A DNA stretch of 17,507 nt, taken from contig JBBTED010000049.1 of the NCBI GenBank assembly GCA_038042445.1, positions 1-17,507 on the forward strand. Reading direction: 5' to 3'. Position 1 is the first letter of the stretch. Each line of letters opens with the position of its first letter. This stretch comes from Candidatus Firestoneibacteriota bacterium (GTDB lineage: Bacteria > Oederibacteriota > D2-FULL-39-29 > JBBTED01). The translations under genes were made by a program, and so were the position numbers. The notes beneath the pieces are model-generated. The model saw only the letters and a program-made list of their open reading frames with translations. It ran no database searches and was not told the DNA's origin. This document shows, in pieces, positions 1 to 5,844 of this stretch.

Positions 1-88
1 GTGGTGTTCCTTTTTGATAGCATAACAAAGCAGCAGCAACTGTAATTCTTTCTGGCTCCGGTGTATGTGTTAAAAGTTGGACTTCCAT
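1..88 (-). CDS. thyX: 5' end of FAD-dependent thymidylate synthase ThyX (runs off the window)
   Basis: Not in the ORF track. ATG at 88, 1 nt after the stop of the 90..515 ORF. Manual translation MEVQLLTHTPEPERITVAAALLCYQKGTP resembles the typical ThyX N-terminus (MKVxLLxHTPEPExxxAxAAxxCY). Confidence 0.75.
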   Translation of the reverse strand, partial: MEVQLLTHTPEPERITVAAALLCYQKGTP

Positions 89-89
89 A

Positions 90-515
90 TTATTTAGGAC
101 TCTCTACTTTTTGATTCATTGTTCTCAACATATTATAAACAAAAAGCAATACTGAAATACCTTCAATTATATAAGATATAATTAATAATAGCTGAAAAAA
201 ATCATTTTTCACTATTTTTGATAATGCCCACAAAACACCCATTCCAATTAATCCAATATTTGCAAGCCAAAATTGAACATCTGCCATTTTAGGAGAATAA
301 AGAGTAGTGCCATTAAATCTTGGCAATATATGATACCCAACACCATATATCATCATACTCATCCAACCAAGTAATCCAAAATGCACATGTGCAAGCAGCA
401 AAGCATCTATAACAAGTCCATTCCAATGCCATATTCCCATAATAACACCCAAAATTGCAGCAACTAAAAAATAAATAATTGATGCTTTTATAAATAATAC
501 TGTTGCTTTACTCAT
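90..515 (-). CDS. Small 4-TM membrane protein resembling one helical repeat of HCO subunit I (HxH motif)
   Basis: 141 aa with four hydrophobic segments; motifs AHVHFGLLGW and GVGYHILPRF; GGAGG RBS at about 526-530. Confidence 0.75.
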   Translation of the reverse strand: MSKATVLFIKASIIYFLVAAILGVIMGIWHWNGLVIDALLLAHVHFGLLGWMSMMIYGVGYHILPRFNGTTLYSPKMADVQFWLANIGLIGMGVLWALSKIVKNDFFQLLLIISYIIEGISVLLFVYNMLRTMNQKVESPK

Positions 516-590
516 AGTTTATGACCCTCCATTTTAGTAGAACTTGTAAAAACAGAAAATTTATTATTTGTTCATTCATATTATTAAAAT

Positions 591-2174
591 TTAATTCATA
601 GTCCTACGCAATGGAAATACTATATTTATAATAGTTTTTAAAGTTAAAGTTCTAATTAAGTTAATAAGAAGGCACAGAAATCCTATCACTATACTAATGC
701 CTCCTATCATAGCAATATTCATTTCTGTTTTAAACTCTATCCCATGATATATAGTACGTCTAAGCATTCCATTTAAACCAGCTGACCCCATAGCTATAAC
801 CATTATAAGAACTCCTGCAACCCAAAATATCAAATGAAGATTAACCAACATATGACTCTTCATTTCTCTATTTAACAAGAGCGGTATTAAAGCATAAACA
901 ATTGCAAACAATAATGGACTCAAACCCAAAAGTAACATTGTATGTCCATGTATACCAATAACCCATTGAGTATTATGCAATACAACATTCAATCCATAGT
1001 TAGCCTGTGTGATTCCTGCTACGGCCCCTAACATAAACCCAAACATAGAAACCAAAATAAATTTTAAAGCAGGTGTGAATTTTACTGGCCGTGCCAAATA
1101 TATTGTCATTAAACTTGCAAAAATTGTAAGCCCAACAGTTACAATTTCCCCAGAAGTTATAAACTGACCAGAAATAAGATGCATAGCCAAAGGTTGAGGT
1201 TGATCTGCAAGTAAATGATGACTCCATACACCTAAAGATATTAACAAATCTGCAAGAATGACTGTACGAACTACACCTTCACCAAATAGTTTTCTATTAA
1301 CTAACATAGGTATTAAAAGATACCATGTACCTGCTGCATACATTAGAACATTTCCATCAGCAATCATATCTAATCCCCACCAAAACCAGTTTTTATATAT
1401 CAAAGCATCAATAATATGCGGATTCAATGTTCCAAACCCAAGTAAAGATGGAATAGCAAAAATAAGAATTAGAATACCACAAGTAAGAATCACAAAAGCA
1501 TTAACCACAGTATCAATACTTCCTCTTGCTACGGCAACAACAAATACAGGTAATGTATCATAAAGTTTATTTTCTTCCTGTATTTCTTTTTTCTTTTTAA
1601 AAATACGGTCTAAACCAAAAGCAGATTTTAAATAGTCTCCAAAACTATAAAGTTTTGATTTTTCAGCTCCATTTACTGGCTTACGTTTAATCATAGTAGC
1701 AAATATATTGTAAGTAAAAAGTAAAATATTAACTAAAGTTATAGCTGCCCCAAGACAGAAAATAACTGCACCTAAATTAGATATCCTACTAAACCAAACA
1801 GGCAAAGGCCAGTATAAAGTATACAAAGCATTGAATTTGGTAAAAAAACCTGAACACCAAACAATAATTACACCAATAGATTGCATCCAGAAATTAAGTG
1901 GAATCAATTTCTTATTGTAAACTTGTGTCTTTAGTAAATATGGCATCAAAAAATAAAAAGCCCCCATAATTGCCATATAAGCATATCCATAAATTCCAAG
2001 TATCGGATGTACTGTCATTACTGAATAGAAATGTTCCGTTGAAAGACAATCAGGTTTGATATGTGAAATACGCATCATCATACCTTCAATTATAGTAAGA
2101 AATAGAAATCCTAATGCAGCCAATACATACCTTATTGTCCATTTTGTTTCAAAAGTTAACTCATTATTTTCCAT
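591..2174 (-). CDS. Heme-copper oxidase superfamily subunit I, divergent; gNOR-like putative nitric oxide reductase
   Basis: 527 aa, about 12 TM. H56 (helix II), HH 319/320 (VWSHH), HxH 409/411 (IHGH) and RR 472/473 are conserved. Helix VI reads FWWGLD(269)MIAD(273)G in place of GHPxVY or HLWVEG. GGAGGA RBS. Confidence 0.9.
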   Translation of the reverse strand: MENNELTFETKWTIRYVLAALGFLFLTIIEGMMMRISHIKPDCLSTEHFYSVMTVHPILGIYGYAYMAIMGAFYFLMPYLLKTQVYNKKLIPLNFWMQSIGVIIVWCSGFFTKFNALYTLYWPLPVWFSRISNLGAVIFCLGAAITLVNILLFTYNIFATMIKRKPVNGAEKSKLYSFGDYLKSAFGLDRIFKKKKEIQEENKLYDTLPVFVVAVARGSIDTVVNAFVILTCGILILIFAIPSLLGFGTLNPHIIDALIYKNWFWWGLDMIADGNVLMYAAGTWYLLIPMLVNRKLFGEGVVRTVILADLLISLGVWSHHLLADQPQPLAMHLISGQFITSGEIVTVGLTIFASLMTIYLARPVKFTPALKFILVSMFGFMLGAVAGITQANYGLNVVLHNTQWVIGIHGHTMLLLGLSPLLFAIVYALIPLLLNREMKSHMLVNLHLIFWVAGVLIMVIAMGSAGLNGMLRRTIYHGIEFKTEMNIAMIGGISIVIGFLCLLINLIRTLTLKTIINIVFPLRRTMN

Positions 2175-2202
2175 ATCAATCCTCCATTATAGATTTAGAA
2201 CC

Positions 2203-2766
2203 CTAAAGCACCTTAATTGCATCATATACAACCATATCTGAATGTTTCGGACCTGAATATTCTGTAGATCTCACATCATAATAACCAGACTGTGAAAAAT
2301 TCCATACAAATCTGTTTTTATAACCTGGTAAAACTTGTATCTGAAACACTAATGTTCCATCTTTACGAAATACTCCAAAACCATAAGTAACATCAGTAGA
2401 ATTTAGAACAAATTCAACAAACTGATTTTTTTCAAAAGTAATAGGTTCTTCAGGAAACTTAAAATTATAATCTGAAACTTCAATATTATAAGTTTTTACA
2501 ACTATTGGTTTAGACCATAGTCTCCATCTCTGCCATGGCACCATATTGGAAATAGTAATAATATGAGCAAGAATAATTATAGATATTAGTATTAAAAAGA
2601 ATCGTAACTCTCGCTTATCTATTCCTGACTTTTTTTCATCAGTTTCTATCTGAGACACATCGGATTTTCTAATTTTGCGAATAAACCATGTAAAAAAAAG
2701 ACAAACCGATATGAAATAAATTGTATAGAATATACGTATTGAATCTGTTACATACATATCAATCAC
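2203..2766 (-). CDS. HCO subunit II (two TM helices plus cupredoxin domain) lacking CuA ligands
   Basis: DVTY(128)GF replaces DVxHxF. S167-T-E-Y-S171-G-P-K-H-S-D-M replaces CxExCGxxHxxM. No CxxCH. GGAGGTG RBS. Confidence 0.88.
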   Translation of the reverse strand: MIDMYVTDSIRIFYTIYFISVCLFFTWFIRKIRKSDVSQIETDEKKSGIDKRELRFFLILISIIILAHIITISNMVPWQRWRLWSKPIVVKTYNIEVSDYNFKFPEEPITFEKNQFVEFVLNSTDVTYGFGVFRKDGTLVFQIQVLPGYKNRFVWNFSQSGYYDVRSTEYSGPKHSDMVVYDAIKVL

Positions 2767-2769
2767 CTC

Positions 2770-3651
2770 CTAAAAAATTAGTTTTCTAAATGATTCTATT
2801 CCCACTCTATTTACGAACATACCAAACCGTTCATCTTTTTGAGATTCCTGAATGTACAACTTTAGACATATTTCTAAAGATTGAACAACAGTATTTTCGT
2901 CAACTAAATCTAATAATTTAACTGCAAATTGTGGATGCCTTCCAAGTTTTCCTCCAATAAATACAGAATACCCACTTTTTTTAGTAACCAATGCCAAAAC
3001 AGGACAAACTTTTATACAAGCAAAACATCCAACACATTTAGAATAATTAACTACAGGTTGTGATTCGTCTTTTATGATTATCGCCTTTTCTTTGCATTCT
3101 TCAATACAAAGTTTACAATTTATACATTTATCATTTACTACTTCAGGAACCACCTGCGATATAACACCAAAATCTTTTATTTGTGGCTGAGAACAGGCAT
3201 TGGGGCATTCTGAAACAGCAATTCTAAATGTATGATGATAAAGAACAGGGCCATCTATTTTATCAATTAAAATATCTGTAGTTTTCATCTCTTCAAGTTT
3301 ATTCTGCAATTTAACAAGCAAACTACTGGAATCCATTAAAGACAAGGGGCATAAATGTTCATCATTACATCCTGTTACTTCATATAATTTTTCTCTGGAT
3401 TCCCACTTCCGTGGGAATGACATTTCTTTTACAGATTCACTATTCAAAGGTTTTTGCATTAGAGAAACTAATTTTTTTGTATCTATACCTACTTTTGAAA
3501 ACATAAATTTCTTCACTTCACTCACATCATTCTCTGTCACTTTTATTCTACCTCTACAAGTAACATATTCTTCTACTTTTTTCTTAGCCAAACCTCTTAC
3601 AAATATTGGTACTTTTTTAATTCTGGCTAAAGCATTAGTTTCCCATTCCAT
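2770..3651 (-). CDS. Sulfite/nitrite-reductase-like Fe-S protein (PCP_red-like N-terminus, NIR_SIR-type Cys motifs, 2[4Fe-4S] ferredoxin insert)
   Basis: N-terminal WxxxAxxRIKKVPIFVR. Cx5C (CNDEHLC) and Cx3C (CPNAC) motifs. Ferredoxin motifs CINCKLCIEEC and CVGCFACIKVCP. GGKLGRHP and ERFG motifs. Confidence 0.82.
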   Translation of the reverse strand: MEWETNALARIKKVPIFVRGLAKKKVEEYVTCRGRIKVTENDVSEVKKFMFSKVGIDTKKLVSLMQKPLNSESVKEMSFPRKWESREKLYEVTGCNDEHLCPLSLMDSSSLLVKLQNKLEEMKTTDILIDKIDGPVLYHHTFRIAVSECPNACSQPQIKDFGVISQVVPEVVNDKCINCKLCIEECKEKAIIIKDESQPVVNYSKCVGCFACIKVCPVLALVTKKSGYSVFIGGKLGRHPQFAVKLLDLVDENTVVQSLEICLKLYIQESQKDERFGMFVNRVGIESFRKLIF

Positions 3652-3654
3652 AGA

Positions 3655-3873
3655 TTACTCTTTTTTGGAAATAGCTGCATTTATTTCATTAACAAGAGTT
3701 TCTGGTTCAATATTGTGCATCATTGCGCCAAAACTTAATGACTCTACATTTATTCCGGCACAAGTAAAACATCCTCCTCCAAAATATTTTTCAATAACAC
3801 TTTTTGCCTGAGGATATTTTCTAAGCACTTCACCTATCATCGTATCTTTATCTATTTTTACAATATCAGACAT
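3655..3873 (-). CDS. DUF1858-type protein (Hcp-associated redox disulfide domain)
   Basis: 72 aa: IDKDTMIGEVLRKYP...GGCFTCAG...ESLSFGAMMHNI, with CxxC. GAGGTG RBS. Confidence 0.8.
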   Translation of the reverse strand: MSDIVKIDKDTMIGEVLRKYPQAKSVIEKYFGGGCFTCAGINVESLSFGAMMHNIEPETLVNEINAAISKKE

Positions 3874-3886
3874 AAGGCATCACCTC

Positions 3887-4360
3887 TCAAGATGCCCAGT
3901 CTTCTGAAAGAACATCACCTTTAATACCAATAACTATAGATTTAATTGGAATTTTACGTTTTGATGCAGCAAGACCTTCTTGTGTAAGAGCCACCAAGCC
4001 AGCACAACAAGGAACTTCCATAGTCATTACTGTAATTGTATTCACTTTTGCATCATCTATAAGCGATTTTATTTTTTCAACATAAATCTCCTGATTCTCA
4101 TCCAATTTTGGACAAGCAATAGCAATACCTTTTCCTTTTAAATAATCTTTATGGAAATCTCCAAGAGCATGCGCTACACAATCTGCTGATATAAGAACAT
4201 CAGCCTTTTGAAAATATGGAGCCTGTGGAGAAACTAAATGCAACTGAATAGGCCACTGCCTAAGTTGCGACGTTCTCTTTCCTGCTTCATCTTTAACTTC
4301 ACTTTCCTTTTCCCTGAAGTCTTGCATATTTGACCCAGGACAACCGCAAGATGTACCCAT
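3887..4360 (-). CDS. Hcp-associated Fe-S protein, C-terminal domain only (no N-terminal ferredoxin domain)
   Basis: Motifs GCPGS, SQLRQWPIQLHLV, ADC, IACPKLD and MEVPCC are typical of the Fe-S protein often encoded next to hcp in anaerobes. Confidence 0.78.
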   Translation of the reverse strand: MGTSCGCPGSNMQDFREKESEVKDEAGKRTSQLRQWPIQLHLVSPQAPYFQKADVLISADCVAHALGDFHKDYLKGKGIAIACPKLDENQEIYVEKIKSLIDDAKVNTITVMTMEVPCCAGLVALTQEGLAASKRKIPIKSIVIGIKGDVLSEDWAS

Positions 4361-4361
4361 T

Positions 4362-5207
4362 TTACCTTACCCCCTTTTTTGTAGTCACTCGCCTAAGCAA
4401 ACGGCTACCTTTGACAATACTTTTTGTATTGCCATTTTCTAAATATTCGACAAATTTTTTGCATTTTTCCGACACTTCTTTCCCTATTTTTTTCTCTGCT
4501 TCATTAAATTTAGAAAATACTTCTCCAACCTGTGTTACTGAAAGCCCTCTATCAATCCATGGATATAATATTTCATCTTCTTTTTTTATATGTTGAGTCA
4601 AAAGTTCTTTATATTTAGTAAGATTTTCAATGATTGCATTTTTATCTTTCTTTGTAAGTGCTTCTACTATTGCTTTAACATAACCTCTGCCTGTTTTATG
4701 ATCTTCAAGCATCGTATTAATAATATCAAGATTGCCTACTGCATATTTAAATAATATATCCTCTTCTTTGGCATGATGAAATTTATCTGCATAAGAACGT
4801 ATAAAATCTACACTATTTATAATTAATTGTTCCCCAGATTTAGTTTTGATATCCAAATTTTTTAGCATATATGGTATAAGTACTAATAACTTTTTTATTA
4901 AAATATGCTCATCCACTAATCTTTTTATTGGTGGTGAATATTTTATCTCTTTGTTCTCTATCTTTTCAGAAACTGCTTTAATTTTAGGTTGTCTAATTTT
5001 TCTGTCTGGATAAATACTTTTTTCTATTAAATACATTAACTCTGTTTTTTGCTCAATTGGAAGATTATGTATATGGACAACATCCTTTAAAAGACAAGAA
5101 CCAACACTACAAGGAACACATCCAATGTTAAATTGTTCCAATATTGTTCCAACTTTAGGAAAATTTGTAATAACTTCTTTTATTGGTCCGTTTAAATATT
5201 TTTCCAT
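4362..5207 (-). CDS. Hemerythrin (HHE) di-iron protein with N-terminal CxxC domain (RIC/YtfE-like architecture)
   Basis: Hemerythrin ligand motifs DEH, HHAKEEDILF, EDH and HIKKEDEILYP; N-terminal GCVPCSVGSC. ATG 5207 preceded by AAGGTG is preferred over the track's GTG 5216. Confidence 0.85.
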   Translation of the reverse strand: MEKYLNGPIKEVITNFPKVGTILEQFNIGCVPCSVGSCLLKDVVHIHNLPIEQKTELMYLIEKSIYPDRKIRQPKIKAVSEKIENKEIKYSPPIKRLVDEHILIKKLLVLIPYMLKNLDIKTKSGEQLIINSVDFIRSYADKFHHAKEEDILFKYAVGNLDIINTMLEDHKTGRGYVKAIVEALTKKDKNAIIENLTKYKELLTQHIKKEDEILYPWIDRGLSVTQVGEVFSKFNEAEKKIGKEVSEKCKKFVEYLENGNTKSIVKGSRLLRRVTTKKGVR

Positions 5208-5224
5208 AATGTTCACACCTTCTT

Positions 5225-5385: not shown

Positions 5386-5598
5386 TTATGCAAAGACTAA
5401 ACGATGCCCTTTTGAATCAGGAATTTGCCGTCCTAATTCTTTAGCAGTTTCTAACCATTCCTGAATTATTACTTCTGCATTAGATAAAGCTTCTTGATAT
5501 GTTGTACCATCTGCCATACAACCCATAAGCTCTGGAACTTCAGCAATAAATGCATTATCTTCTTCACTCCAATAGATAATTATTTCGTATTTATTCAT
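5386..5598 (-). CDS. hicB: Short HicB-family antitoxin
   Basis: MNKYEIIIYWSEEDNAFIAEVPELMGCMADGTTYQEAL...GRQIP. ATG 5598 has a GGAGG RBS and is preferred over TTG 5610. Confidence 0.88.
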   Translation of the reverse strand: MNKYEIIIYWSEEDNAFIAEVPELMGCMADGTTYQEALSNAEVIIQEWLETAKELGRQIPDSKGHRLVFA

Positions 5599-5599
5599 A

Positions 5600-5844
5600 T
5601 TATCCTCCAAGTTTATACTTCAAAATTACATTACGTACCTGTTTGACTTGGTATGGTTTAGCTTTTGAATTTTTAGACTGTAAGTTCAAAATTTCCTCAA
5701 TATCATCTTTGCTAAAAATACAGTGACTTCTTTTTATTCGTTCATCAAAACCTAAATTTTCAATAACTGACACATTTCTGCAAATGAAATATTAGCATCA
5801 GAATAACCACTTAGAACTTTAATTAATATTTTTCGCCATGACAT
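5600..5844 (-). pseudogene. hicA: HicA-family toxin with 1-nt frameshift
   Basis: From ATG 5844: MSWRKILIKVLSGYSDANISFAEMCQLLKI*, with TAG at 5754-5752. Adding one A at 5757-5760 restores ...LKNLGFDERIKRSHCIFSKDDIEEILNLQSKNSKAKPYQVKQVRNVILKYKLGG* (81 aa), ending 1 nt before the hicB ATG. Confidence 0.85.

Follow-up and report, generated by a model that had tools for sequence, protein, structure and literature searches.

The gNOR locus and its neighbours

The window, that is, the whole 17,507-nucleotide stretch of DNA analysed, carries a gene pair for the two subunits of a predicted NO reductase of the gNOR type, lying in a cluster whose other genes encode hemerythrin-domain, Fe-S-associated, NIR_SIR and small four-helix COX1-like proteins (Table 1). 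The pair appears to be inserted between the NIR_SIR and four-helix genes; a paralogous copy of the cluster on another contig (L090) is preceded by a Crp/Fnr regulator gene and has no gNOR. A membrane protein encoded in the window resembles heme-copper oxidoreductase helices IX-XI and contains an H-x-H motif; in a survey of 80 gNOR loci it could not be recognised among the genes that recur beside gNOR. A HicB-like antitoxin is encoded immediately upstream of the gNOR cluster. Since no gNOR-level match was found among 40 relatives of the host genome, three of which gave weak hits of 26-30%, the distribution suggests that the gNOR gene is patchy and was acquired.

Table 1. Positions of the genes and residues discussed (window numbering, except where a contig of the host genome is given)
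Feature	Position	Strand	Remarks
gNOR subunit I, 527 aa, heme-copper oxidoreductase fold	591..2174	-	PF00115, E 3e-60
L26, bo3 R71 position	2097..2099	-	hydrophobic throughout both sets, with no Arg
E30, helix I, likely quinol contact	2085..2087	-	aligns with bo3 D75 and cbb3 CcoN E323
R35, bo3 R80 position, generic heme-copper arginine	2070..2072	-	Arg in 29/34 controls
H48, first turn of helix II	2031..2033	-	aligns with bo3 H98 and cbb3 H337
S51, bo3 Q101 position	2022..2024	-	always small (S/A/G): 116/116; 120/120 (best 120 of 3197)
H56, predicted low-spin heme ligand (bo3 H106)	2007..2009	-	invariant; HMM alignment
D269-x3-D273, gNOR signature	1356..1370	-	D269 replaces the first CuB His, D273 the cross-link Tyr
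H319, H320, H409, H411, other metal/heme ligands	942..1220	-	invariant wherever covered
gNOR subunit II, 187 aa, cupredoxin-type, CuA-less, precedes the subunit I gene	2203..2766	-	CoxB, E 2.8e-10
E169, H175, M178 region of subunit II	2233-2262	-	
Cluster around the gNOR	90-5216	-	
Membrane protein, 141 aa	90-515	-	PF00115 305-398; CcoN-like
HicB-like antitoxin gene	5386-5610	-	
Paralogous cluster copy	G000:C2:51346-54952		
menA and menG	G000:C27:28161-29075 and C18:73405-74106		
NrfA-family protein, 543 aa	G000:C67:67371-69002	+	eight heme motifs (seven CxxCH, one CxxCK)

Family membership and fold

The gNOR family is a proposed family of predicted NO reductases, with a bioinorganic mimic as the only backing of their activity, and was described from 156 GTDB genomes and 913 metagenome records (excerpts of PMC11214002). 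Its marks, as given in the same excerpts, are an active-site His changed to Asp, absence of the cross-link Tyr, and a cupredoxin subunit II without CuA residues. All of these are present here, with D269 for the His, D273 for the Tyr, and Y128, S167 and S171 in subunit II; no difference at the family level was seen and, judged by sequence, the gene is an ordinary member of the gNOR family. None of six gNOR reference accessions of PMC11214002 was among the 10 clusters looked up, and the host groups overlap with those published there in Anaerolineae, Bacteroidetes and Methylomirabilota.

Conservation was evaluated in 116 non-redundant gNORs, obtained by pooling 214 sequences, dropping six without column coverage and de-replicating at 90%; in a second branch consisting of the best 120 of 3197 hits of a divergent gNOR representative; and in 38 non-gNOR relatives as controls, of which two or three rows are poorly aligned and which have a column coverage of 33-34 rows. 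D269 and D273 are invariant in all 81 locus sequences and in 120/120 of the second branch (best 120 of 3197), and the control rows have His in 34/38 and Tyr in 27/38 at these columns.

An AlphaFold2 model of subunit I (pLDDT 83, pTM 0.87) superimposes on the listed heme-copper oxidoreductase chains with TM-scores of 0.68-0.79, and places helix I at residues 8-39 and helix II at 46-81. Chains of bo3 top the Foldseek list, a rank that was discarded as evidence for a bo3-like enzyme and is uninformative because cytochrome c oxidase chains tie with them.

The preliminary description had set the enzyme apart from qNOR, and this distinction holds, with two genes, a separate subunit I and an Asp/Asp centre in place of the fused type with a 3-His/Glu non-heme iron. 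The two are alike in the proposed reaction of quinol with NO and in pairing a His with an acidic residue at the quinol site (putative in gNOR), which in qNOR is made up of His305, Asp724, Glu309 and Arg720 (part of PMC10256718), whereas qNOR is derived from the C family and has one subunit, and gNOR has two, with the candidate site on helices I-II.

Register of helices I and II against bo3

The E. coli bo3 residues R71, D75, R80, H98, Q101 and H106 were verified in the CyoB sequence from NC_000913.3, and translation of the subunit I gene likewise confirmed L26, E30-G-M-M-M-R35, H48, S51 and H56 as previously described. HMM alignment pairs L26 with R71, E30 with D75, R35 with R80, H48 with H98, S51 with Q101 and H56 with H106. 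A single register was returned by hhalign to CyoB with both the N-terminal gNOR profile (probability 93%, E 3.5e-7) and the full profile (98.7%), and comparison of the model with 1fft_A, aligning residues 7..512 with 52..522, shows where helix I begins a shift of +45, as in the profile alignments. The register proposed earlier is thus correct by both profiles and by the model, as is the count of two matches at the four bo3 quinol-site positions, the E30/D75 match being a conservative one.

The remaining two positions do not resemble bo3 in any gNOR examined. Position 26 is L, M, V, I, F or A in 116/116 gNORs and F, L, I or M in 120/120 of the second branch (best 120 of 3197), so that with the uniformly small residue at 51 the equivalents of R71 and Q101 are absent from both sets, which speaks against a bo3-like site. 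In bo3 of A. baumannii, R71 and H98 were seen hydrogen-bonded to ubiquinone (part of PMC13022660). The helix TM0 of bo3 is also absent: helix I of the model starts at residue 8, and model residue 7 corresponds to CyoB 52. The M-M-R35 part of the match was rejected as evidence and carries no quinol information, because Arg is also found at position 35 in 29/34 non-gNOR relatives.

Conservation of E30 and of position 48

E30 is invariant in 116/116 non-redundant gNORs (90% de-replication), in 120/120 of the second branch (best 120 of 3197), in 67/67 sequences de-replicated at 80% across both branches, and in 119/119 covering rows among the best 120 homologues. Position 30 is acidic in just 2/33 non-gNOR relatives covering the column, and E30 is taken from this difference to be a real, family-specific signal. 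Two non-gNOR heme-copper subunits I with Asp at the E30/D75 position (P0216 and P0270) are candidate quinol oxidases of other families.

On a helical wheel of the 67 sequences, an angle of about 140 degrees separates E30 from R35, and E30 falls between the variable hydrophobic positions 19, 22, 26 and 33 (1.65-2.1 bits) and a conserved face containing G31 and M34. The variable positions look lipid-facing, and the placement of E30 is consistent with a carboxylate lying in the groove between helices I and II; on the edge of the conserved face, however, E30 could also point inward.

Position 48 is less constrained, with His in 36/116 non-redundant gNORs and 22/120 of the best homologues. In the second branch (best 120 of 3197), whose members are short-loop forms, it is polar in 120/120, as Gln (94), His (24), Arg (1) or Glu (1), and in the controls it is His in 0/33 and polar in 6/33. 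The 116 gNORs divide by the length of the helix I-II loop: the 45 with a short loop have His (36) or another polar residue (9) at position 48, and the 71 with a long loop, mainly from Chloroflexota, have no His and a non-polar residue in 70. Variability of E30 and H48 had been named beforehand as a refuting result; E30 withstands it fully, while H48 is variable, and position 48 as a whole is better read as a weaker polar position beside a generic R35.

A quick tree of 54 gNORs has His48 in all deep branches and restricts the non-polar residue, together with an 18-residue insert, to one nested, mainly Chloroflexota clade (31 rows, SH-aLRT 89), within which a single short-loop row with His is also nested. 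The insert is found at Chloroflexota loci such as L004 and L007. Loops of modal length have a Glu in the insert in 60/61 and an Arg in 61/61, with 10 loops of other length left out of this count. The link between the long loop and loss of His48 was rejected as evidence of co-evolution, because on this tree the two changes are essentially one event.

Subunit II and loss of CuA

The preliminary description pointed to loss of CuA, and this extends across the family: among 75 subunits II, Tyr replaces a CuA His at position 128 in 75/75 and Ser replaces the Cys residues at 167 and 171 in 73/75 each, so that both Cys and one His are gone in 73-75 of 75. BLASTP of subunit II against CyoA gave E 4e-7, and the Cys-to-Ser pattern is common to both proteins. 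E169, H175 (71/75) and M178 (72/75) are kept in 71-73/75 sequences overall, and the CyoA residue that aligns with H175 is Phe; these retained residues are possibly structural or possibly a remnant metal site. No CxxCH motif was present in the 75 subunits II.

Genes for a possible electron donor

Examination of the host genome (90% complete) for quinone biosynthesis, which had been suggested as a check, gave a divided result. MenA and MenG were found above their cut-offs (TIGR00751 and TIGR01934, respectively), and the ring-forming part of the naphthoquinone pathway was not found: the futalosine pathway (Mqn) and UbiD gave no matches in this genome, nor did the HemA dimer domain, and MenB was below cut-off. 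The organism may complete menaquinone from a scavenged ring, a reading based on the presence of MenA and MenG and on this missing pathway.

The menA gene adjoins a cluster encoding NrfD-type, multiheme and formate dehydrogenase proteins, and the genome also encodes NuoH, an NrfD-type module with multiheme cytochromes, a hybrid cluster protein and several multiheme cytochromes c. No match to bc-type cytochrome b (PF00033) or class I cytochrome c (PF00034) was obtained in the 90% complete genome. An NrfA-family protein, three of whose heme motifs are in an N-terminal extension, is encoded directly upstream of a membrane hydrogenase-like cluster.

Across the 80 gNOR loci no cytochrome c gene recurs; the recurrent neighbours, labelled by sequence inspection, are genes for hemerythrin in 24 loci, for Crp/Fnr in 16 and for a heme O synthase-like protein in 10. 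Of the 80 genomes with these loci, 36 were screened for quinone genes: MenG was above cut-off in 19/36, a count made without a gNOR-free control set, and a MenA-like hit (E<=1e-15) was found in 24/36, with seven over cut-off and the weak hits possibly being other prenyltransferases. In six of the 36, all incomplete archaeal MAGs, MenG did not pass its cut-off and no MenA-like hit was obtained.

A proposed quinol-fed gNOR and its alternatives

The explanation preferred here, with a probability of about 50%, is a menaquinol-fed gNOR having an E30-centred site between helices I and II and a predicted conversion of NO to N2O. Menaquinol would bind on the outer side of the membrane-embedded subunit, in the groove between helices I and II, where E30 would hydrogen-bond one quinol hydroxyl and take its proton, and residue 48 would be an exchangeable second hydrogen-bond partner with no obligatory His proton relay. 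Electrons would then pass to the low-spin heme held by H56 and H411, and on to the high-spin heme and the Asp-ligated metal centre, which would reduce NO to N2O. The family-specific E30, the loss of CuA and the presence of MenA and MenG are all in keeping with the quinol-oxidising NO reductase envisaged in the preliminary description, and E30 is likely part of the putative quinol site; the role given there to H48 as a conserved His did not hold.

A known counterpart is E. coli bo3 (CyoB/CyoA), with its R71-D75-H98-Q101 site. The present protein shares with it an acidic residue at D75, a His at H98, a CuA-less subunit II with Cys-to-Ser changes, and the fold (TM-score 0.75-0.78). Against this, gNOR is without Arg71, Gln101 and TM0, its His98 equivalent is not conserved, identity is about 20%, and bo3 is an A-family oxygen reductase with a His/Tyr cross-link whereas gNOR is B-derived with an Asp/Asp centre. 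The putative gNOR site would be bo3-positioned but only partly bo3-like, outside the definition of a bo3-type site, and probably convergent because gNOR derives from the B family. In the B-family oxidase of Aquifex aeolicus (7DEG), naphthoquinol is proposed to be bound through a glutamate near heme b (part of PMC8251803). This residue, Glu39, was considered as an E30 equivalent and rejected, being situated on subunit IIa at the dimer interface, and the Aquifex oxidase also differs in using cytochrome c as well (same part of PMC8251803).

Conservation of E30 and residue 48 could also arise if they shape the environment of the low-spin heme, with E30 hydrogen-bonding H56 N-delta and lowering the heme potential, His/Gln48 contacting a heme propionate, and any quinol binding elsewhere. 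Among solved sequences, the gNOR helix I-III profile matches best to cbb3 CcoN helices IX-XI (3mk7_A, domain i-E 8e-9), pairing E30 with E323, position 48 with H337 and H56 with H345 (numbering counted from the alignment). In cbb3, E323 forms a hydrogen bond to the proximal His ligand of heme b3, and a propionate of this heme is bound by H337, roles for which the literature search did not find a source. That G31 and M34 beside E30 are also nearly invariant, and that the bo3 arginine is missing, fit this alternative as well. The cbb3 alignment spans the internal repeat and concerns a different repeat and a different heme (high-spin b3). Against this alternative, in the true register positions 30 and 48 are quinol ligands in bo3, and the Glu/polar pair accompanies CuA loss across gNOR where non-gNOR relatives are hydrophobic. 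No other candidate quinol site was identified, in what was not a systematic search, and heme and quinol roles are not exclusive; a purely heme-related function is possible, though on the unlikely side. A more elaborate form of the quinol model is itself unlikely. In it, gNOR would have evolved independently a quinol site where bo3 has one, lacking the arginine and TM0, in two architectures: an ancestral one with Glu30 and His/Gln48, and a derived Chloroflexota one with a hydrophobic residue 48 and the insert Glu/Arg as second contact. In this model Glu30 might in addition link deprotonation of the quinol to the low-spin heme by hydrogen-bonding the His ligand of that heme, as its repeat-equivalent in cbb3 does with the proximal His.

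Two further alternatives leave either the donor or the reaction different. Electrons could come from a periplasmic carrier through a remnant single-metal or docking site in subunit II formed by E169, H175 and M178, whose retention where CyoA has Phe at H175, the several multiheme cytochromes c of the host and the six archaeal gNOR genomes without clear menaquinone genes would all be accommodated. This is improbable, as both bridging Cys and the first His are lost in the same Cys-to-Ser pattern as in CyoA, class I cytochrome c and bc-type cytochrome b were not found in the genome, and no carrier gene recurs in the 80 loci. A real quinol site might instead serve a reaction other than NO reduction, such as oxygen scavenging or turnover of another N-oxide, considering that the family is described as proposed and its activity by way of the mimic only (excerpts of PMC11214002). 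The cross-link Tyr required for O2 chemistry is, however, an Asp in all members examined, and the neighbours here include hemerythrin-domain, hybrid-cluster-associated and NIR_SIR genes, with hemerythrin recurring in 24/80 loci, which makes a different reaction improbable. Under the menaquinol-fed NO reductase reading, NO detoxification is the likelier role here, because the surrounding cluster is of a nitrosative-stress type.

Significance for the gNOR family

Use of quinol by gNOR, with quinol-binding residues, was already proposed in PMC11214002, of which the excerpts and Datasets S1 and S5 do not name those residues. The gain here is a refinement, because the idea of a quinol-fed gNOR had been published as a hypothesis. 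The conservation counts for E30 and position 48, like the description of the Chloroflexota insert, come from the present analysis and may or may not already stand in Murali, Hemp and Gennis 2022, a work that should name the gNOR quinol residues.

A purified gNOR was not met in the literature search, and the family is a widespread, unpurified candidate source of N2O. With a residue to mutate identified, the published quinol hypothesis becomes testable: E30 is the informative target and H48 a secondary one, since a silent H48 mutant would leave quinol use standing.
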